64,000 nt of DNA from Alphaproteobacteria bacterium (GCA_021774615.1 JAJFIW010000036.1:37318-101317); one strand, 5' to 3'. Counted from the first letter of the stretch, positions 13,311-49,610 are shown. Program-made: numbers and translations. The notes: generated from the letters alone by a model not told the origin.

Positions 13311-14888
13311 TTAAATACTTTGTAACGTTTCTTCTTCCCCTGGTGCATCTGCATCGGGGGCTTTTTCTTGTGGTTCTTCTGGTTTCTCTTGTTGCCAGTC
13401 TAGGAAATAGATGGTTTGGGGCTCGTCGAAGCCTTTTAGTTCGCAGTTTTCTTTAGGGATAAATGTATATGAAAGGTGTTGGCTTAAATTATATAATGGT
13501 TCTGCCACAGCAATTTCATGACCATTTGCAAATGGCATAACACGTGCGGCTAGGTTTACTGGTAGGCCAAATAAGTCGCCATCTATGTGTAGTGGTTCGC
13601 CTGCGCTAATGCCAATCCTTGCGTCAAAGGTATGGTCGGGCATTTTCTCGTTGAATAGATTAATTCCTTTTTGGATTGCAACACAAGCCTTTAAACCATT
13701 TTCAACCGAAGGGAATGACATCATGATACCGTCACCAGTATGCTTTACTTCGTAGCCACCAAAAACTATAAGCGCTTCCCTTACAATGTTATTATGAGCA
13801 TGGAGGATATCAATCATCCATTCGTCACCCATAGTGCGGATATTTTCGGTAAAATCTACAATGTCGGTAAAGCCAACAACAGCAAAGTTCGTAGGTGTTT
13901 CTTCCGAAGCTATTTCTGTTGATTCCTTTTGTGGGTTGCCTTTTCCTATGTTGTACCAAGCTTGTATAGATTCCTGTATAGATATAGGTGCTGACTCGTC
14001 TTTGTTTATAGCTAATATGTTTTCTTTGCCTTGGGTATAAATATTAAAATACTTAGGGTAAACAAGGTACTCGTGCAGGTTTAATGCTGTGTTAAGGACA
14101 CTTTCTGGTGTTATTCCTAAATCATTAAGTAATATAGTGACTTGCTGATTAGTAGTGCGTTGGTCTGTGCCAAGGGTTTTTGTGAAGCCTTGGCTCATAC
14201 CAAGAAGATACAAAATAAGGGCGAAGTGGCCGTCTTCTTTAAACTTTTTCTGTTCGTCATCCCATACTAGTGGTTTAGCTAGCGATGTAGCCTCAGACAA
14301 AATTGCTTCTGTCTTTTGCAATTTTTTCTGCATAAGAAGCTTTCTTTTTTCTTCCTGTTTTATGGGGGACGCTTCGTCAATAGTAGAGTGTATCCACACT
14401 GCTAGCGATATTGTTATACTTCCCATCATAAGTAGTACCATCATTATAGATGGTATAGAGGCACCATTTATAATCATCATTATAATAATAATGATGGATA
14501 CCCCAAAGCCACCCATACCAACTGTTAACGCATTCCCAAAAGCTGAAGGAGTAGGGGGTTTTGTAGGCTCTGGCTCTTTATTTTTTTTACGGTTGTTATA
14601 GAGATTGTTTAATGCAGACGATGAAATTTTTTGTGTGGAAATATTTTTTTGCCCTGCTTCTTTTAAACCTCTTGCGATTATAGAGTAGGTTGGCGCAGGG
14701 CCTTTTGCAGCATAGGAGAAAATGATCTCTCTAGTGTCGTCAATAATTAGTGCTACAGCTTCGTAAAGGTAGTCTTCCTTGAGCTTGCCCGCTTCTTTTA
14801 GGGCTGCGGCTCTTTTGTCTTTAGGGTAGATTGCACGAAAAGACCATACACCTTTTTGTTTAACGCATAGGTCGATGTCACCCTTCAT
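13311..14888 (-). CDS. Membrane-anchored class III adenylate/guanylate cyclase
   Basis: The C-terminal catalytic domain has FTDIVDFT...VKHTGDGIMMSF...RIGISAGEP motifs. The centre holds a Pro-rich linker and a poly-Ile TM region (SIIIIIMMIING). The N-terminal ~110 aa soluble domain has unknown function, and the tail is acidic. Confidence 0.75.
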   Translation of the reverse strand: MKGDIDLCVKQKGVWSFRAIYPKDKRAAALKEAGKLKEDYLYEAVALIIDDTREIIFSYAAKGPAPTYSIIARGLKEAGQKNISTQKISSSALNNLYNNRKKNKEPEPTKPPTPSAFGNALTVGMGGFGVSIIIIIMMIINGASIPSIMMVLLMMGSITISLAVWIHSTIDEASPIKQEEKRKLLMQKKLQKTEAILSEATSLAKPLVWDDEQKKFKEDGHFALILYLLGMSQGFTKTLGTDQRTTNQQVTILLNDLGITPESVLNTALNLHEYLVYPKYFNIYTQGKENILAINKDESAPISIQESIQAWYNIGKGNPQKESTEIASEETPTNFAVVGFTDIVDFTENIRTMGDEWMIDILHAHNNIVREALIVFGGYEVKHTGDGIMMSFPSVENGLKACVAIQKGINLFNEKMPDHTFDARIGISAGEPLHIDGDLFGLPVNLAARVMPFANGHEIAVAEPLYNLSQHLSYTFIPKENCELKGFDEPQTIYFLDWQQEKPEEPQEKAPDADAPGEEETLQSI

Positions 14889-15014: not shown

Positions 15015-16049
15015 TTATTTTCTTAAAGCATTACTACCAAAGTGTGATCTTCCTCGACTATCTATGAACTGCAAGGAACCACTTCCGCTACTCCTAAGTG
15101 TTCCAGAAAAATGCCCAGAGACTTGGGCATTGCCCACAGCGCTCCAACTACCATTGTATGAAACACTGCTTGGGTTTCCTACTGCGTACGAGATAGTACC
15201 TAGTGCAGAGTATCGGTTTACACCCATAACAATGGTGTTTAAACTAGCTCCTGCTGCTGAGGCACTGGCTAATGATATCCAAGAACCTTGGTAGTAGCAG
15301 CCTCTGGTGCTTATGTATGTGTAATAACCACCTCTATAGTAGCAATACCTAGCAGTACCAACAGAGTAGTGCGGTGATGGTGACCCTAAAGTAGAGCAAT
15401 TTGAACTACCCACATTACGACTAGTATCGGTACAGAATGTTTCTGAAATATTTAACCCTCTAACTCTATTAGAAGTACCAGACAATACAGCCTCTATATA
15501 GCTGGTTTTTCCACCATAGGTGAATCTCCAGTTACCATTAACCCAAGAAAATGCAGCCAACGGATCAACCGGTGGCGGTGGTGGAGGTGGTGGAGGCGTT
15601 GGCGTAGGTGTAGGTGTTGGCGTAGGTGTTGGCGTAGGTGTAGGTGTTGGTGTAGGCGACCCACTTCCAAGAGCATTCACCCTAGAAATAAGGTTATTAA
15701 TTTGCGCTTGCATAGCATTAAGCCTGCTATTAATAGTATTAATGTTACCTGTATTGGTAGCAATACCAGTAGTGTTAGTGGCAATGTCAGCAGTATTAGT
15801 AGCAACTTGCGTTTCTAATGTACTAATTCTTGTGTCCAAGGCTGCTTGCCCTGACTGCAAATTAGGTATTGATGTACCGATAATAGTATTTACATTACTA
15901 TCTGTTGCCTGAAGGCCTGCAGCTAAAGACTGCGCTGAAGCTGAGTCTACAGTTTGGACCCCGCTTGCAGACATTGTTTGTGCTTGCGCTTGCGTGCCTG
16001 AAACCAGCATACACAAGCTGAATAAGGTTATAATTTCTATACGCTTCAT
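15015..16049 (-). CDS. Secreted paralog A: signal peptide, N-terminal coiled/repetitive region, (Pro-Thr)n-polyPro linker, Cys/Tyr/Ser/Gly-rich C-terminal domain
   Basis: 344 aa with signal peptide MKRIEIITLFSLCMLVSGTQAQA and the linker GSPTPTPTPTPTPTPTPTPTPPPPPPPPP. The C-terminal domain (AAFSWVNGNWRFTYGG...CYYRGGYYTY...) is clearly homologous to the ORF at 16198-17196. Confidence 0.6.
   Translation of the reverse strand: MKRIEIITLFSLCMLVSGTQAQAQTMSASGVQTVDSASAQSLAAGLQATDSNVNTIIGTSIPNLQSGQAALDTRISTLETQVATNTADIATNTTGIATNTGNINTINSRLNAMQAQINNLISRVNALGSGSPTPTPTPTPTPTPTPTPTPTPPPPPPPPPVDPLAAFSWVNGNWRFTYGGKTSYIEAVLSGTSNRVRGLNISETFCTDTSRNVGSSNCSTLGSPSPHYSVGTARYCYYRGGYYTYISTRGCYYQGSWISLASASAAGASLNTIVMGVNRYSALGTISYAVGNPSSVSYNGSWSAVGNAQVSGHFSGTLRSSGSGSLQFIDSRGRSHFGSNALRK
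15571..15657. repeat. In-frame GGN/hexanucleotide repeat tract (ggcgtaggtgta-type) encoding the poly-Pro and (Thr-Pro)n linker of paralog A
   Basis: Direct reading shows ggtggcggtggtggaggtggtggaggc followed by repeated gttggcgtaggtgtaggt units. Confidence 0.8.
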
Positions 16050-16158
16050 GTGGAGTCCCCCTAAATAACTTTAAATATAGTCCCCGTTACATCTTATATA
16101 CTGCATTAAAAATATTTTACTGACATATGTAAGGATGCCTAACATTGTATTAAAAATA

Positions 16159-16188
16159 AGGAGCTAATAATAAATACATAGCTCCTTA
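16159..16188. terminator. Terminator hairpin (aaggagct...agctcctt) downstream of paralog B
   Basis: 8-bp perfect inverted repeat with a T-tract on the minus-strand reading, located 10 nt past the stop of the 16198-17196 gene. Confidence 0.6.
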
Positions 16189-16197
16189 CCTTGTCTA

Positions 16198-17196
16198 TTA
16201 CTTTCTCATAGATACGTTAAAATAGGGCCTACCACTACCACTTAAGAATTGTAGGCTTCCTGAACCATTTTTATTTAATACACCAGAGAATGGCCCTGAT
16301 GATCTTGCTCCAGAGCCTATAGAGCTCCAAGAACCACTATAAGATACTCTGCCTGTGTTGCTTACAGAGTAAGATATAGATGCAAGAGCAGAATAGCTAG
16401 CGGTTGTAGATTTTATAGTGTTTAGAGTTGCACCATCTGCTTTCGCATCTTTAAGTGATATCCATTTACCTTTGTAAAGGCATCCTTTTGAACTAGAATA
16501 TGCATAATACCCACCTTTATAGTAGCAATTGTGCGAGGCAAGCATTATTGGGGCTGGACTACCCAACTGAGAACATTTTGGTTTTACTACATTACGAGTA
16601 GTATCGCGGCATGCCGTCTCTCTTATAGAAATGGATGACATACGATTTGTAGTACTGTTTAATGCTACATTAAAAGAACCTACAATCCCAGTGTTGCCTG
16701 CATAAGAGAATTTCCATACGCTATTAACCCAAGAGAATGCAGCAGTTGGGTCTGTAGGCTTAGGTGTAGGCGTAGGTGTTGGGGCTGGCGTAGGTGTTGG
16801 TGTTGGAGTTGGAGTAGGCGCAGGTGTAGCACCACCACCTCCTCCACCCCCAGCACCAAGAGCATTTATCTGTGCTTGTAAGCTTACATCTGTATTAGTT
16901 AGGCTTACATCTTTGTTAGTTAAGTTAGTTAAACTTGTGTCATGGCCATCTAGGCGTAATTTAAGAGCATCAATCTGTGCCTGTAGATTGGACTGCCCTG
17001 TTTGTAAATTAGGGATTGATGTACCGATAATAGTGTTTACATTACTATTAGTTGACTGAAGGTCTGCAGCTAAAGACTGTGCGGAAGCTGCATCTAAAGT
17101 TTGTGTGCCACTTGCAGACATAGTTTGTGCTTGCGCTTGCGTGCCTGAAATTACCATACACAAACTAAATAGCGTAATAACTTTAATGCTTTTCAT
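16198..17196 (-). CDS. Secreted paralog B: signal peptide, N-terminal repetitive region, poly-Gly + (Pro-Thr)n linker, Cys/Tyr/Ser/Gly-rich C-terminal domain
   Basis: 332 aa with signal peptide MKSIKVITLFSLCMVISGTQAQA and linker GAGGGGGGGATPAPTPTPTPTPTPAPTPTPTPKPT. The C-terminal domain aligns with paralog A (AAFSWVN..W.F.Y.G; CYYKGGYYAY; LQF..G.GR..F). Confidence 0.6.
   Translation of the reverse strand: MKSIKVITLFSLCMVISGTQAQAQTMSASGTQTLDAASAQSLAADLQSTNSNVNTIIGTSIPNLQTGQSNLQAQIDALKLRLDGHDTSLTNLTNKDVSLTNTDVSLQAQINALGAGGGGGGGATPAPTPTPTPTPTPAPTPTPTPKPTDPTAAFSWVNSVWKFSYAGNTGIVGSFNVALNSTTNRMSSISIRETACRDTTRNVVKPKCSQLGSPAPIMLASHNCYYKGGYYAYSSSKGCLYKGKWISLKDAKADGATLNTIKSTTASYSALASISYSVSNTGRVSYSGSWSSIGSGARSSGPFSGVLNKNGSGSLQFLSGSGRPYFNVSMRK
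16762..16856. repeat. In-frame hexanucleotide/GGN repeat tract encoding the poly-Gly and (Pro-Thr)n linker of paralog B
   Basis: ggtgtaggcgtaggtgttgg... units followed by accaccacctcctccaccccc. Confidence 0.8.
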
Positions 17197-34625: not shown

Positions 34626-34768
34626 AATAACTACCTATACTGTTTTCTATAGTTAGAAAATACTCCTTACGAGTAAAAAGTCAAATCTGAAAAGTAGATG
34701 TTGGAGTCATTATTTATTAAGTGGTACTATATGGGTAATAATATTTCTAAGAAAGAAAGATCATTACC

Positions 34769-35998
34769 ATGTTCAAGATACCTGCAACTGCTGCCGATTT
34801 TCATGCAGAATTAACAGATCTACAGCAAAAATTCCAAGCGATGGAGCCAGAGCTAGAGCTGACCATCCGTGATCCTGAAATGGGGGTAGAAGGCTATGTT
34901 GTAGTGTGGAATACAGGCATTAGCCTTGGCGGGGCTTTACCAGCTTGTGGTAAAGGCGGAACACGAGTTACTAAGGACTTAAAGCTAGATGATGTTAAAC
35001 GCCTAGCACGAGCTATGGCTGAGAAAAATGCAGCAGCAGGCTTGCCTTTAGGCGGGGCAAAGTCTGGGTTGCGCCTTGATCCGACATCTCCAGATTACGA
35101 AAAAAAATATCGCCGTTTTGTCGAACTCTGTAAGCCAATTTTACATGAGCATGGCGGTATCTTTGGTGGTTTCGGCTATGATGTGGGGTGTATCCCGCCT
35201 AAAAATGCAATTTGGGCATGCGACCAACTAAAAAGTAACCGTAGCTTTACAGGTAAACCTGTAGATATGGGCGGTACAGACTATGACAAAGAGGGGATAG
35301 CAGGTCTTGGGGTTGCTGTTGCTGCTAAAACCCTTATTGAAGAAAATGGCAATACTGCCCAAGGCAGTACGTTCGCAGTACAAGGAGTAGGCGCAATGGG
35401 CGCAGCTATTATCCGTTACTTTGTTGATTATGGCGGAGTTTTAAAATACCTATCCGATCCTAAATACGGCGGAACATGGGGCATAAATAACACTCCATCA
35501 GCTGATCTTATCGACGCACTAGCCCATCAGAAAAAAGATATAGCTATCGACTTACTAGCAAAAGAGGCTACAAAAATATCAGACGACTGCACCGAAGCTC
35601 TCTATGCAGATGTTGATGTGCTATTCCCTAGTGCTATGGAAGATGTTTTGCATAAAGGTAATGCAGCTAAAGTTAAAGCTAAATTTATGGTAGAGGGGGC
35701 TAATAACCCAACCACAGCCGAAGCACACCAAATCTTGTTTGATAAAGGCATTAAAGCCGTGCCAGACATTATTTCTAACCCTGGTGGGATTATTGCAGCA
35801 TTTGTTGAGCTTACCTCAAAAGCAACCTCAGAAGAAAATGTAAAAACACACATTAACGTGACAAACGCTAAAGAAATGACCATTACCAAGGTATCAGAAA
35901 ATACTAAAAAATTAGTTAATATAGTGAACACTCTAAAAGTGCGCCCAGACCTAGCAGGCGACTATATGGCATACCGTAATATTTTTTATGGGCTGTAA
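34769..35998 (+). CDS. Glu/Leu/Phe/Val-family amino acid dehydrogenase (glutamate dehydrogenase-like)
   Basis: Catalytic Lys region GLPLGGAKSG and Rossmann motif FAVQGVGAMGAA. Confidence 0.75.
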   Translation: MFKIPATAADFHAELTDLQQKFQAMEPELELTIRDPEMGVEGYVVVWNTGISLGGALPACGKGGTRVTKDLKLDDVKRLARAMAEKNAAAGLPLGGAKSGLRLDPTSPDYEKKYRRFVELCKPILHEHGGIFGGFGYDVGCIPPKNAIWACDQLKSNRSFTGKPVDMGGTDYDKEGIAGLGVAVAAKTLIEENGNTAQGSTFAVQGVGAMGAAIIRYFVDYGGVLKYLSDPKYGGTWGINNTPSADLIDALAHQKKDIAIDLLAKEATKISDDCTEALYADVDVLFPSAMEDVLHKGNAAKVKAKFMVEGANNPTTAEAHQILFDKGIKAVPDIISNPGGIIAAFVELTSKATSEENVKTHINVTNAKEMTITKVSENTKKLVNIVNTLKVRPDLAGDYMAYRNIFYGL

Positions 35999-36001
35999 GC
36001 T

Positions 36002-36039
36002 AAAAAGCCCTATGTGTTTAAGTACATAGGGCTTCTTTT
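36002..36039. terminator. Bidirectional terminator (aaaaagccctatgtgtttaagtacatagggcttctttt)
   Basis: 11-bp inverted repeat flanked by A and T tracts, between convergent genes. Confidence 0.75.
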
Positions 36040-36051
36040 AGGTTGCATTAT

Positions 36052-37434
36052 TTAAGCAAGTGCTTGCTCTTTTTCTTTACTTTTTTGTGGTTTGTTATTC
36101 TCGCGATAATTACTTACTTGCGCTTCTATTTCTTGCGCGTCATCAACAACAACCATTGCTGCATGTACGACACTTCCATCCTTAAGCTTACTTGAGTGAG
36201 TTACAGTTTTTAGCCCTGTCTCATTTTGTATTTTTTCGGCTATGGCTTCTGCACCTTCTCTAGTTTCGGATGTAACATATACACTGGGGTGTTCTTCCCC
36301 TTGGATCCCATGACTAGTATAAGCTGAATGGCCTCTCGGTAATTTATTGTCTTGAATTACGCTTGAAACTTTATTTGCTGCACGAAGTTGTGCTCTGTAC
36401 TGTTCGTCATTAACCTGTTCATTTTTAACTAATGTTGGGTTTTCCTCATTTAAAACCTGAGGGTCATAATTATCAGGATATACTTTTGGGGTATTAACAG
36501 ATTTTGTTAGCGTCTCTTCTCGACGCACTAGATCTTCATCTGTTTTAGCTGATAGCTTATGCATAAGCTTGTCATTCTTATCTTTTGCTTCAAGGTAGTT
36601 ACCTATTTGTACAGTTACTTCTCGTGGGTCTTCTACAATTAGCATCGCCATGTGCTGAGTTGTACCGTCTTCAAGTTTTTTGGATGCTGTGACAAAATTT
36701 AAGCCAGTTTGTTCTTTTAGGTCATTTGCTACTGCTTGAGCAGCTTCTTGAGTATCCCCACAGTTAATACGTACATTAGGGTGTTTTGCACCACCATTAC
36801 CACCGTCAATGCTGCAAGATAGGTGGCTTGGTAGCAAACCACCACTCTTATTTCTTAGTAAGTTGCCAACATCCTGTGCTGCTGTCATTTTTTCTTTATA
36901 TCTTGTAAGAGATACCTCTTTACAAGGGTTTGGCGAGTCTTCAACAGCATAGTCTTTGCCAGTTTTTCTTTCTTCGTTATAACTAGCATATTTACTGCCC
37001 TCAACCATTTTATGACCTTTTGGGGGCTTAGATATAGGTATGCCTAATTCTTTAAATTGTTGCTCAATCTCGTACAGCTCTTTCTCCCAATATGCAGTAT
37101 CTTTTCCGTCTGCATGTACTAAAAGACCTTCTTCAGAGTTTGGGTTTATCCGTAAATCATTTTCGCCTCTAATCGGAACATCAACTACTGGGGAATCATC
37201 TTTTTCTGTGACTATACGTCCTAGAACAATGCCATAGCCTTTAGCTTCATCACCTTTACCTATTTTAAAACCAAAGTGGTAGCCTTTAAATACTCTTTTC
37301 TCACCTGGCTTGGCAGTCCTAAATTTTTCACTATCATATACAAACCCGCTACCTGTATAGTCACAATCAGGTAATTGACCACTTGCTTCCAATTGGTTGG
37401 TTATATCTTCTCTTGTATATTTAGATTCTACCAT
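36052..37434 (-). CDS. Hypothetical protein with an internal tandem duplication of a ~60-aa domain (effector-like)
   Basis: 460 aa. Two homologous modules: CGDTQEAAQAVANDLKEQTGLNFVTASKKLEDGTTQHMAMLIVEDPREVTVQIGNYLE and SETREGAEAIAEKIQNETGLKTVTHSSKLKDGSVVHAAMVVVDDAQEIEAQVSNYRE. No known catalytic motif. Confidence 0.5.
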   Translation of the reverse strand: MVESKYTREDITNQLEASGQLPDCDYTGSGFVYDSEKFRTAKPGEKRVFKGYHFGFKIGKGDEAKGYGIVLGRIVTEKDDSPVVDVPIRGENDLRINPNSEEGLLVHADGKDTAYWEKELYEIEQQFKELGIPISKPPKGHKMVEGSKYASYNEERKTGKDYAVEDSPNPCKEVSLTRYKEKMTAAQDVGNLLRNKSGGLLPSHLSCSIDGGNGGAKHPNVRINCGDTQEAAQAVANDLKEQTGLNFVTASKKLEDGTTQHMAMLIVEDPREVTVQIGNYLEAKDKNDKLMHKLSAKTDEDLVRREETLTKSVNTPKVYPDNYDPQVLNEENPTLVKNEQVNDEQYRAQLRAANKVSSVIQDNKLPRGHSAYTSHGIQGEEHPSVYVTSETREGAEAIAEKIQNETGLKTVTHSSKLKDGSVVHAAMVVVDDAQEIEAQVSNYRENNKPQKSKEKEQALA

Positions 37435-37658
37435 TGTAAAAGCCCTATGTTTTGTTTCCCATATACAAGTGATGTGTTCTTTTTTTATAAAAACAAGCCC
37501 CTTAGAGACAACAAAATGAGGATAGGGGTAGGGGATTTATTTTATAATTACATTCTGAATACTTGAAAAACTAAGAATAATCCCAACAATAAGCAGTACA
37601 TACAGAAACATCTTTATTTATTTTTATATTTTTGGGCATTGCCCGAGGAAAATTAATC

Positions 37659-37904
37659 ATGAACAAAAGAAATAAAAGAAATAACCAGAAGCCTAAATTG
37701 TCATTTCAGGTAAAAACAACTAATGGAACCGTAAGTTTTTATGGCCCATACTTGTTATGCTTTATATTGGCTTTTATGCTTTTCTTTGCACTTAACGGTG
37801 CAGGTTGGTTTTTATCCCTGTTTTTAGGGGGATTTTCTGGTTTATTGACTGGGGTCACAGCAATGGCAGCATATGCTGTCTATTTAACTGAACCTAAACA
37901 TTAA
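37659..37904 (+). CDS. Small membrane protein, tandem family member 1 (82 aa from the conserved start)
   Basis: Start chosen at the ATG preceded by the conserved AGGAAAA RBS. Basic N-terminus MNKRNKRNNQKPK, then two hydrophobic helices. Confidence 0.5.
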   Translation: MNKRNKRNNQKPKLSFQVKTTNGTVSFYGPYLLCFILAFMLFFALNGAGWFLSLFLGGFSGLLTGVTAMAAYAVYLTEPKH

Positions 37905-37924
37905 CGAAAAAACGTTTAATCGTT

Positions 37925-37951
37925 CCCCGTCTCTGGCGGGGTTATTTTTTT
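37925..37951 (+). terminator. Rho-independent terminator ccccgtctctggcgggg + T-tract
   Basis: Seen directly, 20 nt after the stop of member 1. Confidence 0.7.
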
Positions 37952-38104
37952 GTGGTGACTAATGAGAAGAACCATAGAAACCCCCATAAAAAATAATAAG
38001 TACAGACACTTTAAAATATCTATAACCATCCCTATAATGAAGTGTGAACATAGAAACATCTATTATTTTTTTAAATTTTGGGTATTGCCCGAGGAAAATT
38101 AATT

Positions 38105-38302
38105 ATGCAGAAAAAAGGAATCATTATGTTTAATGGCCCATATGTGTTGTTTTTTATGGCGCTTTTTGTGGTCACCTTTGCAACCAATGGAGCTAGTATG
38201 GTTGACTCTCTAACTTTCGGGAGTTTTTTTGGTTCCCTTTTTGGGGCTACAGTTATGGCAGGCTATGCTAAGCTTAGTTATAGCTATTACCCTGATTATT
38301 AA
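38105..38302 (+). CDS. Small membrane protein, tandem family member 2 (65 aa)
   Basis: Conserved RBS/start context. FNGPYVLFF resembles FYGPYLLCF of member 1. Confidence 0.5.
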   Translation: MQKKGIIMFNGPYVLFFMALFVVTFATNGASMVDSLTFGSFFGSLFGATVMAGYAKLSYSYYPDY

Positions 38303-38383
38303 TTCCACACACAAGTAGAATGGTGGATTTGCCAGCATTTGCTCAAGTAATATGCTTTTTTAACGAAAAAACGTTTAATCGTT

Positions 38384-38410
38384 CCCCGTCTTTGGCGGGG
38401 TTATTTTTTT
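38384..38410 (+). terminator. Rho-independent terminator ccccgtctttggcgggg + T-tract
   Basis: Near-identical to the terminator at 37925. Confidence 0.7.
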
Positions 38411-38551
38411 GTAGTAACTAATGAGGAAACACCTATCAAAAATAGGTATAGATACTTTAAAGCACCCATAACCATCCCTATAATAAGTAGTACATACAGA
38501 AACATCTTTATTTATTCTTAAATTTTTGGGCATTGCCCTAGGAAAATTATC

Positions 38552-38812
38552 ATGAAACAAAGACACAAAAGGAACAAAAAAACAGTATCTGCAAAAAGCG
38601 TTACTTGTACTTTGCAGTTTCAATGGTGGAACCTTTTAGGTTTTGCTGGTTTGGCTTATTTGTTTACAGATAAGGCCATAGCATCTGGAGCAGAATTTGC
38701 TCCTGCCATTATAAATGGTCTGCTCAACGCATCTGCATTAACAATTATCGGAGTCGGATTGATCCTAATAGTATGCGGGTTATTTGGTAGAACTGTTGTT
38801 TTACTGAAATAA
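38552..38812 (+). CDS. Small membrane protein, tandem family member 3 (86 aa)
   Basis: Conserved upstream 5'UTR. Basic N-terminus MKQRHKRNKK, then two TM helices. Confidence 0.5.
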   Translation: MKQRHKRNKKTVSAKSVTCTLQFQWWNLLGFAGLAYLFTDKAIASGAEFAPAIINGLLNASALTIIGVGLILIVCGLFGRTVVLLK

Positions 38813-38850
38813 GGCTCTTAACGAGAAGCGATTTTTTATTTATCGTTTCA

Positions 38851-38877
38851 CCCGTCACTTGTGGCGGGTTTTTTTTT
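38851..38877. terminator. Terminator cccgtcacttgtggcggg + T9, likely bidirectional (also downstream of lptG)
   Basis: Seen directly between convergent genes. Confidence 0.65.
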
Positions 38878-38883
38878 ATGGTG

Positions 38884-39975
38884 CTACTTAGAAAAGCGTG
38901 ACTCTTTCCATAATGTATAGGTAATAAGGGCTATACCAAATATTATCGATGGCAGCCATACGGCCAAAGTAGGGGGGAACTCGCCACCTTCACCAAAGGA
39001 TAAGGCAATTCGCTCGCCTACAAAAAATAAAAACCCGATTATAATAATACCTGCACTAAGCACTGTTTTATTTGTGTGCCGAGGGCTCATAAATAAAAGT
39101 GGGACTGCGATTAAGATCATAATTAAAGTGCTGAATGGCTGGGAGAACCTACGTTGCAGCCATGTATCATAGTAATAGTTGCGGCTATCAGTTAGGTGGT
39201 TGGCTGTTGTTAGTGCTAATAGCTCGGGAAGGGTCATTTCATCAATTTTTTTATTGAAAACAGCTAAATCTTCTGGGGTAGAATTTAAATTTATAGGGTG
39301 TTCTTTAAAGCTAGAGATTTTGCCCGAATCTAAGTTTTTCTCGGTTACGTCGTGTAATATCCATTTAGAATTTGCATCGTAAGTAGCTTTACTTGCAGTG
39401 GTGTATGTTTCTAGCCTACCTAGTTTATCACGCTCAACTAATTTAATATTGAGGAGAGTACTTCCAGTATCATTTGCATCTTCAGCAAATAGGATAAGCT
39501 CATCAATTGTAAACCAAGCAGGGTAGCGGCTGATATTTGTCTGAGCTGTTACTTCTCTATAGTCGTTATTAGCCCAGATGCGCAGTTTCTCTGATGTATC
39601 GAGTACTACCGTGTTAAGAAATATAAAATGTAACGTTGCTAAAAATATACCGCCACCAATAAATACGCCTACAATACGTAGCAAACGTATGCCCGAACTC
39701 ATTATGGCGGTTATTTCTAGGTGGCTGTGGAACCGACTATATACAGACATTGCAGCTAACATCCCAGCCATAGGAATAACCAACGAGATTATCTGTGGTA
39801 AACGTAGTATGGCATATAGCCCTGTGGCCTCAAAAATTGGCATGCCTCCACCGAGGATACTATCGCTCTGGGCTAGAATATCAAACACTAAAAAAAGCAA
39901 AGCTAATACCAATGAAAATGCCAAAGAGGCATTAATAAAATGCTTAAGTAGATAGTATCGTAAAATTGAAGACAC
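38884..39975 (-). CDS. lptG: LPS export ABC transporter permease LptG
   Basis: 363 aa YjgP/YjgQ-family permease with a periplasmic beta-jellyroll insert, adjacent to lptF. Confidence 0.85.
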   Translation of the reverse strand: MSSILRYYLLKHFINASLAFSLVLALLFLVFDILAQSDSILGGGMPIFEATGLYAILRLPQIISLVIPMAGMLAAMSVYSRFHSHLEITAIMSSGIRLLRIVGVFIGGGIFLATLHFIFLNTVVLDTSEKLRIWANNDYREVTAQTNISRYPAWFTIDELILFAEDANDTGSTLLNIKLVERDKLGRLETYTTASKATYDANSKWILHDVTEKNLDSGKISSFKEHPINLNSTPEDLAVFNKKIDEMTLPELLALTTANHLTDSRNYYYDTWLQRRFSQPFSTLIMILIAVPLLFMSPRHTNKTVLSAGIIIIGFLFFVGERIALSFGEGGEFPPTLAVWLPSIIFGIALITYTLWKESRFSK

Positions 39976-39995: not shown

Positions 39996-41153
39996 TTAGT
40001 GTTTACGTTTACGTGGGCGTTTAAAGAAAGACATAACATATCTATAAGGTGGTGCATCCATCCAGACCGCAATTAGTGTTGCGGTGATAATAGCCAGAAT
40101 AGACAAAGGTGTCCACAACCCTGTCCATGTAGACAAACTACCGAGTGCGGCAAAGGCTTCGCCGAAACCGAGTATTTTCTCGTACAGAATAAGAATAACT
40201 ACCCCCAAACCAATCCCATAAGCACGCCCCGTACGCCCAGAACCAACTAAGGCTAAGGGTATCGCTAGTAATGCTAGTATTGGGACTGATAATACTAAAA
40301 CAATACGGCTATGTAACTCGGCTTTCATTTCAAGGAATGGTGCTTTGGTTAAAACACCTTGTACTCCTTCTGAGAACAATTCTACCAAAGTCATCTCGCG
40401 GCTTTCTTGCCCACGGTTGCCATATTCTTCGATGTTGTCTAGTGGGGGGCTCCAGTAAAATTGGCTAAAGCTAATGGTAGCGGCTGTATTATTAGTGCTA
40501 CTTTCCCGAACCATTTTACCATTTTTTAATAACAGGGTAAAATCGCTCTCGGGGTTGGCAGATTCGGTAACTCGCACTGCTTCTTGTGCGGTTATAATAG
40601 TACGGTTGCCGTTATCGTTGGTTGAGGCAAAGAAACCAGTAAAGAACTTACCACCTTGGCTAACTGTTTCTGCCCGTAGGGTAATGTCACTCCCGAGGCT
40701 TTCAAAAATACCAGGGCGAAGGTTGGTTAGCATTTGCGATTTTGTAAGCTCCCAAACAGACAAATGATAAGCATAACGGGCGTAAGGTTGCACAAAACCA
40801 ATTAAAATAAGCATTAAAATAGTAACTACTGTAGCTAACGCCATAACTGGACGGATGATTTGCTCTAGCGATAGTCCAGTTGAGAAAATAGCAGTTAATT
40901 CAGAGTCTTGTTGTAACTTCCTGATGCTAATCATCAGTGCAATAAATAATGCTGCTGGCAACGCTGTACCAAGGTAATGGGGGATAAGATACCACAACAG
41001 TTTAAAGGCACTTATAATAGGTGTGCCTTCTTCTGTAACCAATTGCACCAAGCGCATTAGCCGCTCTAAAACAAGTGTTATTAAAATAATAAATAACGCC
41101 ATAATAAACGGCGGGGTTACTCGGCGCAGCAGATATACTGTTAATTGCGACAT
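39996..41153 (-). CDS. lptF: LPS export ABC transporter permease LptF
   Basis: 385 aa YjgP/YjgQ family with N-terminus MSQLTVYLLRRVTPPFIMALF. Confidence 0.85.
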   Translation of the reverse strand: MSQLTVYLLRRVTPPFIMALFIILITLVLERLMRLVQLVTEEGTPIISAFKLLWYLIPHYLGTALPAALFIALMISIRKLQQDSELTAIFSTGLSLEQIIRPVMALATVVTILMLILIGFVQPYARYAYHLSVWELTKSQMLTNLRPGIFESLGSDITLRAETVSQGGKFFTGFFASTNDNGNRTIITAQEAVRVTESANPESDFTLLLKNGKMVRESSTNNTAATISFSQFYWSPPLDNIEEYGNRGQESREMTLVELFSEGVQGVLTKAPFLEMKAELHSRIVLVLSVPILALLAIPLALVGSGRTGRAYGIGLGVVILILYEKILGFGEAFAALGSLSTWTGLWTPLSILAIITATLIAVWMDAPPYRYVMSFFKRPRKRKH

Positions 41154-48413: not shown

Positions 48414-49610
48414 TTAAGCAGTTTTCTTGCTTGGAACAGGCAATAAGTGTTTTTCGCTCTCATCACGATGTTTTTTTAGGTATTTCATAAAAGGTGTGCC
48501 ACCTGTACCAACATCACTCGGGTTACCAGCTAAACTATTTTGTTTATTAATGTATGATGCTGCATATTCTAAATGTAGAGCACGGAACTGGTGCATTTGG
48601 CTAAGGCAAGCGTTATATAGCTCGGTCAACTCTATGTTTTCAGTTTTTTCTACAAATGCTCTTAAACCGCTGCGTTTTGCTACTTCTTCAATAAAACGAC
48701 GGTGTAAAACTGGGCGATAATCGTGCAATTCGTTTAAATATTGGCGCAGAGGGTCGTTAGAGTGCATAACATTAAATAAAGCATCCATTGTTGGCACAAT
48801 AGAGCTTTGCGAGCCTGTTTGACCACGGAAACCTTGGATCTCTCCTTTAAATTTATCCACACCTTCATAGATCACGCCACCTGGTAGGTCAGGGTTGTCT
48901 TGCCAGCCGTGGATATAGGGGCGGACACGGGTAAAGTAGGTATATGGGTCGCAGCGTTCTACCATGCGTGCCATAGTTGGGTTTATATTTTGCCATGAGG
49001 CAAGTATTTCTTTAAGCCCTGCAATTACAGCTTGTTCGTTGCTGGCGTCTACACCTTCAAAAATAGATGGGATTGCTGCTAGTGCTTGGCCAGCTTCGGC
49101 CTCAATCTCCACATGGATCATTTTAAACCAGTTTTCGTCAATCCCGCTCGAAAAATGTTGCATCATGTAGATGTTCTCTACGGTTATTCCACCTTTTTTG
49201 TCAAGCATGCTCCAGTTGTCTAGCACGTAGCATGAGTAAGGCAGAAGAGGGAACTGTTCTAGTTTTTCAGCAACAAGGCAAAAGGGCACACTAATATTAC
49301 GGGGGATAATATGGTTGGGTTCATCCTCACCCCATACCCAGCTTTGGGCAAAGTACGAGTAGTAAACCATAGCGTTTCTAAGTTGCTCGTTGGTGGCTGT
49401 ATTAACAAAACTAGTTACGTCAATTTCAGGGATAGTTTTAAGATAACGGCGCACCACACCTGTGGCCATCCACTCGGGTAGCCATTTTGCGGCTTCAATG
49501 ATTGGGTTAAATAGCTCTGGCATTTGTACAGTTACAGGGTCGTACTTACATAAAAATCCACGCTCTTTAGAAACATCAAACTTAGTAATATCAAAATGTT
49601 CGGTCATCAT
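48414..49610 (-). CDS. Indoleamine 2,3-dioxygenase-like haem dioxygenase (eukaryote-like)
   Basis: 398 aa. Blocks are collinear with human IDO1: IPRNISVPFC vs LPRNIAVPYC; IHGWQDNPDLPGGVIYEG vs LSGWKGNPQLSDGLVYEG; FRGQTGSQSSIVPTMD vs FAGGSAGQSSVFQCFD; LRQYL vs MRRYM. Confidence 0.8.
   Translation of the reverse strand: MMTEHFDITKFDVSKERGFLCKYDPVTVQMPELFNPIIEAAKWLPEWMATGVVRRYLKTIPEIDVTSFVNTATNEQLRNAMVYYSYFAQSWVWGEDEPNHIIPRNISVPFCLVAEKLEQFPLLPYSCYVLDNWSMLDKKGGITVENIYMMQHFSSGIDENWFKMIHVEIEAEAGQALAAIPSIFEGVDASNEQAVIAGLKEILASWQNINPTMARMVERCDPYTYFTRVRPYIHGWQDNPDLPGGVIYEGVDKFKGEIQGFRGQTGSQSSIVPTMDALFNVMHSNDPLRQYLNELHDYRPVLHRRFIEEVAKRSGLRAFVEKTENIELTELYNACLSQMHQFRALHLEYAASYINKQNSLAGNPSDVGTGGTPFMKYLKKHRDESEKHLLPVPSKKTA

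Follow-up and report, generated by a model that had tools for sequence, protein, structure and literature searches.

Organization of the tandem array

We analysed a stretch of 64,000 nucleotides from the genome of an Alphaproteobacteria bacterium (GCA_021774615.1 JAJFIW010000036.1:37318-101317); the whole 64-kb stretch is called the window here, and positions are counted from its first letter. On the + strand, at 37563-38879, we found three head-to-tail units with start-to-start distances of 446 and 448 nt, in agreement with the three tandem units of about 450 bp described in an earlier note on this DNA. The tandem repeat reported there is real, and several details of that report need correcting. 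Aligned with MAFFT and compared in a sliding identity profile, the units are built alike, with promoters at equivalent positions, and their parts follow one order: a promoter-like site, a leader of about 60 nt, an AGGA ribosome-binding site (RBS), a hydrophobic open reading frame (ORF) and an intrinsic terminator. The array is a group of lineage-specific tandem small membrane-protein genes, notable for its mosaic flanks and for a predicted hairpin shared by the leaders. With slightly better than even confidence, we read it as three monocistronic genes for small membrane proteins under shared translational control, carried by a lineage-specific insert beside lptG.

The three ORFs, all on the + strand, encode the proteins named u1 (37659..37904), u2 (38105..38302) and u3 (38552..38812). 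They comprise 81, 65 and 86 codons, as expected for the small proteins of 65-86 aa that had been described, and the ATG stands 7-8 nt 3' of AGGA in all three. When the units were shuffled, ORFs matching the observed lengths appeared in 9, 46 and 12 per 2000 trials for units 1, 2 and 3 (0.45%, 2.3% and 0.6%).

All three units share a 67-nt 5' block with 78-85% identity. The same promoter block had been proposed for each unit. Units 2 and 3 indeed carry CCCTATAAT, and their promoter-like sites, 38010..38038 and 38456..38484 (both +), have the form TTTAAA-17-TATAAT; but unit 1 has CCCAACAAT with a weaker -10, and its site at 37563..37590 (+, TTGAAA-16-AACAAT) is weaker than those of units 2 and 3. 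The unit 1 promoter lies at the edge of the repeat, and upstream of it unit 1 gradually loses its likeness to units 2 and 3. A sigma-54 -24/-12 reading of TGGGCATTGCCC was also considered and was rejected by eye, the GG-to-GC spacing being wrong.

The leader, or 5' untranslated region (5'UTR), of unit 1 covers 37597..37658 (+) from its putative start; those of units 2 and 3 cover 38045..38104 and 38491..38551 (both +), the latter being 90-97% identical to the unit 1 leader. Directly 5' of AGGAAAA and the following ATG stands GGGCATTGCCC in units 1 and 3 and GGGTATTGCCC in unit 2, and the dyad immediately before the RBS was thus correctly described. The 5' module can be written as the motif pair ACAGAAACATCTTTATTTATT...GGGCATTGCCC. 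The 24-nt leader motif occurs three times in the window, against 0.00 occurrences expected by chance. One extra exact copy of GGGCATTGCCC was located at 15125; it lies inside an ORF, has no flanking similarity and is taken as chance.

The 3' module of unit 1 (37901..37966, +) reads TTAACGA(A6)CGTTTAATCGTT and contains a terminator hairpin at 37925-37941 with a T-run. That of unit 2 (38360..38425, +) contains its terminator hairpin at 38384-38400, again with a T-run. These two 66-nt modules are 95% identical and account for both matches of the module in the window. A near-identical terminator module had been reported for every unit; this holds for units 1 and 2, but unit 3 shows only about 47% identity. 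The unit 3 module (38818..38879, +) nevertheless keeps the layout, a TTAACGA...ATCGTT stem-loop and then a terminator hairpin (38850-38869) with a T9 run, and ends 5 nt short of the stop codon of the convergent lptG (38884). Terminator-like sites numbered 11, against 1.4 expected. Unit 2 also has a 3' untranslated region (3'UTR) of about 60 nt after u2 that is absent from unit 1. We looked in it for a remnant of the C-terminal coding part of u1 and discarded the match as marginal, since 13 of 500 shuffles were as good.

Features of the encoded proteins

The proteins have a common build, in which a basic N-terminus is followed by hydrophobic segments. u1 starts with a basic N-tail (7 K/R) and continues into a predicted helical hairpin; AlphaFold2, run on a two-sequence alignment, modelled two long helices (residues 29-46 and 48-77) with moderate confidence (pLDDT 63). 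An NGAG turn lies between the helices, and helix 2 carries G57xxxG61xxxG65. u2, a paralogue of u1, has the short N-tail MQKK, an aromatic/polar C-terminus and a G39xxxG43xxxG47 motif whose position is aligned with the zipper of u1. u3 has a basic N-terminus, MKQRHKRN, which resembles MNKRNKRN of u1, and a hydrophobic C-terminal half. The basic N-terminus claimed for all three proteins is accordingly long in u1 and u3, but merely MQKK in u2.

Hydrophobic stretches were defined as 15 residues with at least 10 I/V/L/F/C/M/A residues. Each protein has at least one stretch passing this rule, and the number per protein is one or two. Two transmembrane helices had been assigned to each protein. The modelled hairpin of u1 agrees with this, but the one or two stretches marked by the rule do so only in part, and we regard two transmembrane helices in each protein as a model-based suggestion.

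Codon 8 of u2 is a further in-frame ATG, which has an AAGGAA of its own in front (38105-38130). Two products could thus be made, differing by the extension MQKKGII with its two lysines. The layout is similar to the dual-start motifs of holins, but no lysis gene is in the vicinity, and PHROGs gave no match.

Through pairwise comparison, u1 and u2 were found to be identical at 25 of 52 residues (48%) in an ungapped alignment (E=6e-12). The 156 aligned nucleotides contain no indel, and the coding frame alone is free of stops. The alignment keeps the GPY motif, the NGA turn between the hydrophobic stretches and GxxxGxxxG in the second stretch. The statement that the similarity is limited to FNGPY/FYGPY is thus incorrect: u1 and u2 share far more than this motif, and u3 does not have F[YN]GPY. 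Judged from their sequences, u1 and u2 are clear paralogues and appear to be fast-evolving proteins. Their nucleotide differences are distributed as 17/16/22 over the three codon positions; the ratio of nonsynonymous to synonymous substitutions (dN/dS) is about 0.5-1 depending on the method, with a synonymous divergence (dS) of about 0.5-0.8.

The first 21 or so residues of u3 resemble u1, and 10 of 1000 shuffles scored as well. Beyond this N-terminus, u3 behaves like shuffled controls against both u1 and u2, at the DNA and at the protein level. A frameshifted relative of u1 or u2 was considered for u3 and rejected, because the similarity was rescued in no reading frame.

u3 is the sole one of the three proteins in the protein collection (P0001, a singleton); u1 and u2 are absent, and flanking genes of the same contig are present. 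Because they are absent from the collection and gave no self-match in the word or profile search, u1 and u2 seem to be unannotated.

The substitution pattern raises the question of whether the units are decaying or functionless tandem duplicates whose flank similarity is a by-product of recent gene conversion. A dN/dS of about 0.5-1 with nearly equal changes at the codon positions would suit such decay, as would the missing gene calls for u1 and u2, the lack of homologues for the proteins in our searches (see below) and the degraded -10 box of unit 1; unit 2 has moreover lost the long N-tail and gained about 60 nt of 3'UTR. However, the three ORFs are open at lengths rarely reached by chance, u1 and u2 are free of indels over the 156 nt with the GPY, NGA and GxxxGxxxG positions kept, and the RBS, the start codon and the terminator are intact in all three units. 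We therefore consider decay quite unlikely.

Another explanation starts from the NGA turn, and supposes that the products are processed and exported: the basic N-tail and the first hydrophobic stretch would form a Sec-type signal that is cleaved after the conserved NGA-G/S, and the glycine-rich peptide of about 32-34 residues freed in this way could resemble a bacteriocin or act on the membranes of other cells. Small residues at -3/-1 (G-A-G and G-A-S) are conserved between u1 and u2 after the first hydrophobic stretch, the N-regions of both proteins are positively charged, and fast divergence is often seen for antagonistic peptides. The hydrophobic stretch of about 19 residues, however, has the length of a membrane span and not that of a typical signal-peptide core, and the N-region of u1 is very long (about 25 aa). 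The NGA motif is missing from u3, none of the genes beside the array was recognised as serving export, immunity or maturation, and the cleavage site was read by eye. This explanation is very doubtful.

Mosaic similarity of the units

The coding parts of the units are far less alike than their flanks. Between u1 and u2, nucleotide identity is 65% in the alignable block of the coding sequence (CDS) and 95% in the 66-nt 3' module, which bears out the description of conserved non-coding flanks around diverged ORFs. In the sliding profile, identity between these units is 50-70% in the CDS, climbs to 96-100% in the 3' module, and reaches 100% over about 45 nt including 24 nt 5' of the hairpin. Units 1 and 3 are 90-97% identical over the block from -10 to RBS and about 40% identical, about chance level, in the CDS. 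The drops of identity at the module borders are sharp.

To describe the grouping of the units, we counted informative sites, at which two units agree and the third differs, and gave the counts as u1=u2 : u1=u3 : u2=u3. The block from -10 to ATG gave 2 : 13 : 3, with u1 and u3 as the closest pair; the CDS gave 56 : 33 : 15 and the 3' module 20 : 1 : 0, with u1 and u2 as the closest pair in both. The contrast in grouping between the 5' block and the rest is significant (Fisher p=5e-5). Farther 5', beyond the -10 box, units 2 and 3 form the closest pair, with 14 of the 20 informative sites, which is expected because unit 1 stands at the repeat edge.

With a dS of about 0.5-0.8 between u1 and u2, neutral flanks should be far more diverged than what was seen. 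The flanks are too alike for this dS, and therefore conversion or module exchange has homogenised them, purifying selection has held them, or both have acted. Gene conversion of the regulatory regions together with fast protein divergence, one of the explanations offered when the repeats were first noticed, fits both the mosaic segments and the high dN/dS of u1 and u2.

The identity of the 3' modules also allows a reading in which the RNA products are what is selected: the 3' module would be a 3'UTR-derived small RNA of the Hfq type, or the whole unit a regulatory RNA, with the ORFs incidental or secondary. The 100% identity of units 1 and 2 over about 45 nt includes 24 nt that a plain terminator does not need, and it adjoins a CDS with a dS of about 0.5-0.8. 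At E<=10, sub-threshold Rfam matches driven by the terminators (rseX, GadY and RprA) were also obtained on the 3' modules. These matches are, however, far under the gathering scores and of the kind that any strong terminator gives; recent gene conversion explains the identity equally well; and the strong RBS, the ATG and the long hydrophobic ORF in all three units argue for translation. RNA as the selected product is thus very improbable, and we keep to small membrane-protein genes with homogenised or selectively held flanks.

Predicted hairpin in the leaders

As RNA, the dyad GGGC-AUU-GCCC forms a 4-bp clamp. A hairpin was predicted in all three leaders (37629-37649, 38076-38095 and 38523-38543 in units 1, 2 and 3), with energies of -10.0, -7.0 and -6.5 kcal/mol at 37 C. 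In unit 1 (UUUUU-GGGC-AUU-GCCC-GAGGA) the U-run stands against the AGGA of the RBS. In unit 2 (UUUU-GGGU-AUU-GCCC-GAGG) a C-to-U change keeps a G.U pair, and in unit 3 (UUUUU-GGGC-AUU-GCCC-UAGGA) a G-to-U change breaks one U.G pair and leaves one U/U mismatch. The consensus fold of the three leaders has 8 pairs, among them U.G, U.G and U-A on AGG(A). A fourU thermometer is a 5'UTR hairpin in which four U are paired with the AGGA of the Shine-Dalgarno (SD) sequence (PMC3185406, PMC10586365), and this pairing is found in the hairpins predicted here.

The stem energies of units 1, 2 and 3 were -14.3/-10.2/-10.3 kcal/mol at 20 C and -8.7/-6.3/-5.3 kcal/mol at 42 C. The predicted probability that the SD sequence is unpaired was about 0.13-0.25 at 20 C and, after a modest rise, 0.30-0.37 at 42 C. 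Compared with 43 gene starts in the window, the leaders are among the 5-12% most structured. Rfam gave no match at gathering thresholds. A regulatory or antisense-target role had been suggested for the dyad; regulation is plausible, and the dyad reads most simply as a U-run/AGGA hairpin rather than as an antisense target.

Homologue searches and dispersed copies

For u1, u2 and u3 there was no match in Pfam, NCBIfam, PADLOC or PHROGs. A word-indexed search of 5.8 billion proteins returned nothing for u1 and only the protein itself for u3, and a HMMER profile of u1 and u2 gave 0 hits against 1.84 billion representatives. Scans of metagenomes and viral contigs with back-translated patterns found no match, and neither did tblastn and blastn searches against plasmids and phages. 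The leader motif was matched once in a metagenome-assembled genome of Desulfobacteraceae and 11 times in metagenomes, and these matches are attributed to chance because they are confined to the pattern of about 20 nt itself. No match of the motif was found in the viral collection.

Within the window, the leader motif occurs only at the three units and the 3' module motif only at two of them. The many scattered copies of a repetitive extragenic palindromic (REP) element or a miniature inverted-repeat transposable element (MITE) are thus not present in the window, and the alternative that the flanks are a general REP-like element is not supported. More broadly, the flanks could belong to an element, mobile or dispersed, that has nothing to do with the ORFs, either integron attC cassettes or REP/MITE-like repeats. 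Variable ORFs between conserved spacers of about 200 nt superficially recall cassette arrays, and the locus lies in a lineage-specific insert. But the conserved part takes in the promoter, the leader, the RBS and the initial codons, so that it passes into the ORF without a break; the neighbours that were scanned include no recombinase; and close matches are absent from the genome, metagenome, viral and plasmid collections, where only the 20-nt chance matches occurred. We consider such an element extremely unlikely.

An integron attC array in particular was rejected. The only palindromes are the 11-nt dyad and the terminator stems of 7-9 bp, not the 50-150-nt attC type. No conserved RYYYAAC...GTTRRRY pair was found at the unit borders; GTTTAAT fails GTTRRRY and the left ends are not conserved. 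Integron cassettes are promoterless, but the ORFs of the array each have a promoter-like site and a leader.

Genomic context

The array is the third component of a lineage-specific segment of about 4.25 kb (34626-38883) between a FA_hydroxylase gene and lptG. The other two components are a Glu/Leu/Phe/Val-dehydrogenase-like gene (34769-35998, +), which scored far under the NCBIfam cut-offs for named dehydrogenases, and an orphan gene for a 460-aa protein (36052-37434, -), which is divergent from unit 1. The nearest relatives of LptG among the 5.8 billion proteins show 53% identity. In three contigs that carry them, lptG abuts the FA_hydroxylase gene and the gene order is otherwise as in the window. 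Because the 4.25 kb are absent at the same place in these relatives, the array is part of a lineage-specific insertion.

The array adjoins lptG (38884-39975, -), next to which lies lptF (39996-41153, -). A HIT-domain gene, a DUF6134 gene and an RND efflux pair are further neighbours, indicating a chromosomal housekeeping setting. Repeats in a flanking position, as expected for a mobile element, were not found, nor was there any phage, plasmid or defence-system signal in PADLOC, PHROGs and plasmid, phage and viral scans. LptF (39996-41153) itself mainly finds LptF/LptG proteins from alphaproteobacterial plasmids or chromids (Roseomonas, Sinorhizobium and Sphingomonas) at about 30-34% identity, which is a weak indication of affiliation.

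The gene of the 460-aa protein is bracketed almost exactly by a 16-nt direct repeat, AAAAGCCCTATGTGTT / AAAAGCCCTATGTTTT, at 36003-36018 and 37438-37453 (15/16 identical). The rough chance expectation of a 16-nt repeat in the 4.8-kb stretch is 0.1-0.3, and the pair may be a target-site-like duplication or a coincidence. The 460-aa protein had no match in Pfam, NCBIfam, PHROGs, PADLOC, PDB, or plasmid or viral DNA. Read from its sequence, it contains an internal duplication of a domain of about 70 residues with a helix plus strands (about aa 215-280 and 380-445); the AlphaFold2 model was poor overall (pLDDT 41.5), with some confidence in the duplicated domains only. A terminator-like hairpin, GTCTCTAAGGGGC with a T-run, lies 5' of the start codon of this gene (37487-37509, -), in the divergent intergenic region that it shares with unit 1. 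This hairpin showed no significant pairing with the unit leaders; it could be a leader or attenuator of the 460-aa gene, or else terminate a divergent RNA of very small length.

Elsewhere in the window, a full-length gene of the indoleamine 2,3-dioxygenase family was found at 48414-49610 (-; Pfam IDO, E=2.4e-83). Two adjacent ORFs of 344 and 332 aa (15015-17196 and 13311-14888, both -) had no Pfam match, and adjoin a 525-aa protein with an adenylate/guanylate cyclase catalytic domain.

Interpretation of the array

In the explanation that we favour, three separately expressed small membrane-protein genes with a common translational control, each unit would be transcribed alone, from its own sigma-70-type promoter, through a leader of about 60 nt, to a strong intrinsic terminator. 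The GGGC/GCCC clamp would hold four or five U against the AGGA of the RBS in each leader, and translation is probably held back until the weak U.G/U-A pairs are opened by warmth or by a factor, as in a fourU-like gate. The products would be helical hairpins of the inner membrane with a basic cytoplasmic N-tail. GxxxGxxxG is a helix-packing motif of channel-forming and oligomeric membrane proteins; the glycine zipper in the second helix of u1 and u2 suggests self-association in the membrane, and these products most likely do so. They could modulate or perturb the membrane, and in the cell they could serve membrane modulation or the stress response, or be toxic. What u3 shares with u1 and u2 is just the 5' module, the first 10 or so codons and, in diverged form, the 3' layout. 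Short-tract gene conversion, purifying selection or the two together would keep the regulatory modules alike.

Several points weigh against this explanation. The promoters, the transcription starts and the translation are predictions, and promoter-like sites are not enriched in this AT-rich stretch (7 found, 6.3 expected). Among the three paralogous leaders there are 0 compensatory pairs; because of this lack of covariation the hairpin is indistinguishable from a conserved DNA dyad, and the 5-1-5 dyad may instead be a DNA operator. The predicted SD accessibility of the leaders is only moderately low, at the 5th-23rd percentile of the genes in the window, and the Rfam FourU model is not among the 20 matches listed at E<=10 over 37400-39000. 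The dN/dS and codon-position pattern of u1 and u2 is also what decaying, unconstrained duplicates would be expected to give, and the source annotation apparently lacks gene calls for these two ORFs. As only three sequences are compared, unequal rates instead of conversion could account for part of the mosaic.

One further possibility concerns the 5' module. This module, comprising the promoter, the fourU-like leader and the first 8-10 or so codons of the basic tail, might be a portable expression-and-insertion cassette that is copied by recombination onto unrelated short hydrophobic ORFs; a related version has hairpin-controlled, self-limiting membrane toxins with no antitoxin. We give this idea a low probability. 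If it is true, the locus would be a birthplace or trial site of new small membrane proteins under a common and possibly temperature-gated switch.

The array is of interest for several reasons. Small membrane proteins are under-annotated, and the source annotation seems to lack two of the three ORFs here. Provided that the proteins are made, they would be a new small-protein family confined to a deeply branching and poorly sampled Gram-negative lineage. The array is a compact natural case in which near-identical regulatory modules are attached to coding sequences that drift or are swapped, and it may serve as a test case for gene conversion versus UTR selection and for fourU-type gating outside heat-shock and virulence genes. 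If the proteins prove toxic, type I-like loci would be extended to larger, two-helix proteins. Current understanding is not overturned by the array, and there is no sign of a categorically new mechanism.

Comparison with known systems

The nearest analogue named in the earlier note was the tandem type I toxin-antitoxin (TA) locus. If the array were of this type, each ORF would encode a membrane-depolarising toxin, the leader hairpin would keep the mRNA inert, and a small antisense RNA would silence it; this RNA would be encoded in cis in each unit, or elsewhere and aimed at the leader, explaining the conservation of the leaders. The known tandem loci (ldr/rdl, ibs/sib, zorO-orzO/zorP-orzP; PMC2887945, PMC3919570) consist of head-to-tail small hydrophobic ORFs, as the array does. 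The array is likewise a strain- or lineage-specific intergenic insertion, with leaders predicted to hinder translation by occluding the RBS. Fozo et al. 2010 used tandem repeats with similarity beyond the ORF and a polar/aromatic C-terminus as auxiliary criteria (PMC2887945). The array has tandem hydrophobic ORFs with similarity beyond the coding region, a hydrophobic stretch of possible transmembrane nature in every protein, and polar/aromatic C-termini in u1 (YLTEPKH) and u2 (KLSYSYYPDY), as in the known loci; the C-terminus of u3 (RTVVLLK) does not fit. The terminators with their upstream A-tract might act both ways, and one weak minus-strand promoter-like site (38022-37993) is directed into the 3' end of unit 1.

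Type I toxins are, however, generally under 60 aa, and the search of Fozo et al. 2010 was limited to 70 aa (PMC2887945). None of the array proteins, which are 65-86 aa, is under 60 aa; u2 (65 aa) is under 70 aa, and u1 (81 aa) and u3 (86 aa) exceed both values. They probably have two helices, against one in the known toxins. No toxin family (Hok/Gef, Ldr/Fst, TisB, Ibs, ShoB, Zor and others in Pfam/NCBIfam) was matched at E<=1, and the proteins show no sequence relation to any of these families. The minus-strand promoter-like site is not conserved in the spacer between units 2 and 3, and within the array a consensus scan, which is a weak test, detected no terminator on the minus strand. Pairing of the leaders with the divergent upstream region did not exceed that of shuffled sequences, and the leader core has no other complementary place in the window; neither an antitoxin RNA gene nor a complementary partner was detected in the 64 kb. 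Known tandem loci conserve the toxin ORF along with the UTRs, whereas the ORFs are the part of the array that diverges most. The analogy draws on the tandem arrangement and the hydrophobicity; size and family searches speak against it, and the weak tests for an antisense RNA brought it no support. There is no evidence that the array is a TA system; its status as a type I toxin locus is unsupported rather than refuted, and we consider it unlikely.

Separately expressed membrane-protein genes with gated leaders, the explanation preferred here, call for a comparison with FourU RNA thermometers such as those of Salmonella agsA, htrA and SPbeta blyA (PMC3185406, PMC2887971, PMC10586365). The weak pairing between a U-run and AGGA that marks these thermometers is predicted in all three array leaders as well. 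Unlike them, the array leaders have no Rfam FourU match even at E<=10, and the top of their stem consists of four G-C pairs closed by a 3-nt loop. The array genes encode orphan membrane proteins and not heat-shock or virulence functions, and the temperature response of their leaders is a trend calculated in silico.

The zippers of u1 (G57xxxG61xxxG65) and u2 (G39xxxG43xxxG47), both in the second helix, are like those of glycine-zipper small membrane proteins. The array proteins differ from these in having no match to the Pfam glycine-zipper families, or to any other Pfam family, at E<=1, and u3 has no clear zipper; oligomerisation of the array proteins is suggested by the motif.

The mosaic of the units compares well with the concerted evolution of tandem paralogues. 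The array offers three copies from one genome, in which conversion and selection are inseparable. As in known cases, different segments support different groupings of the copies with sharp boundaries, and near-identical tracts adjoin sequence saturated with changes. Unlike the usual situation, the homogenised tracts of the array are the regulatory modules and not the coding regions.

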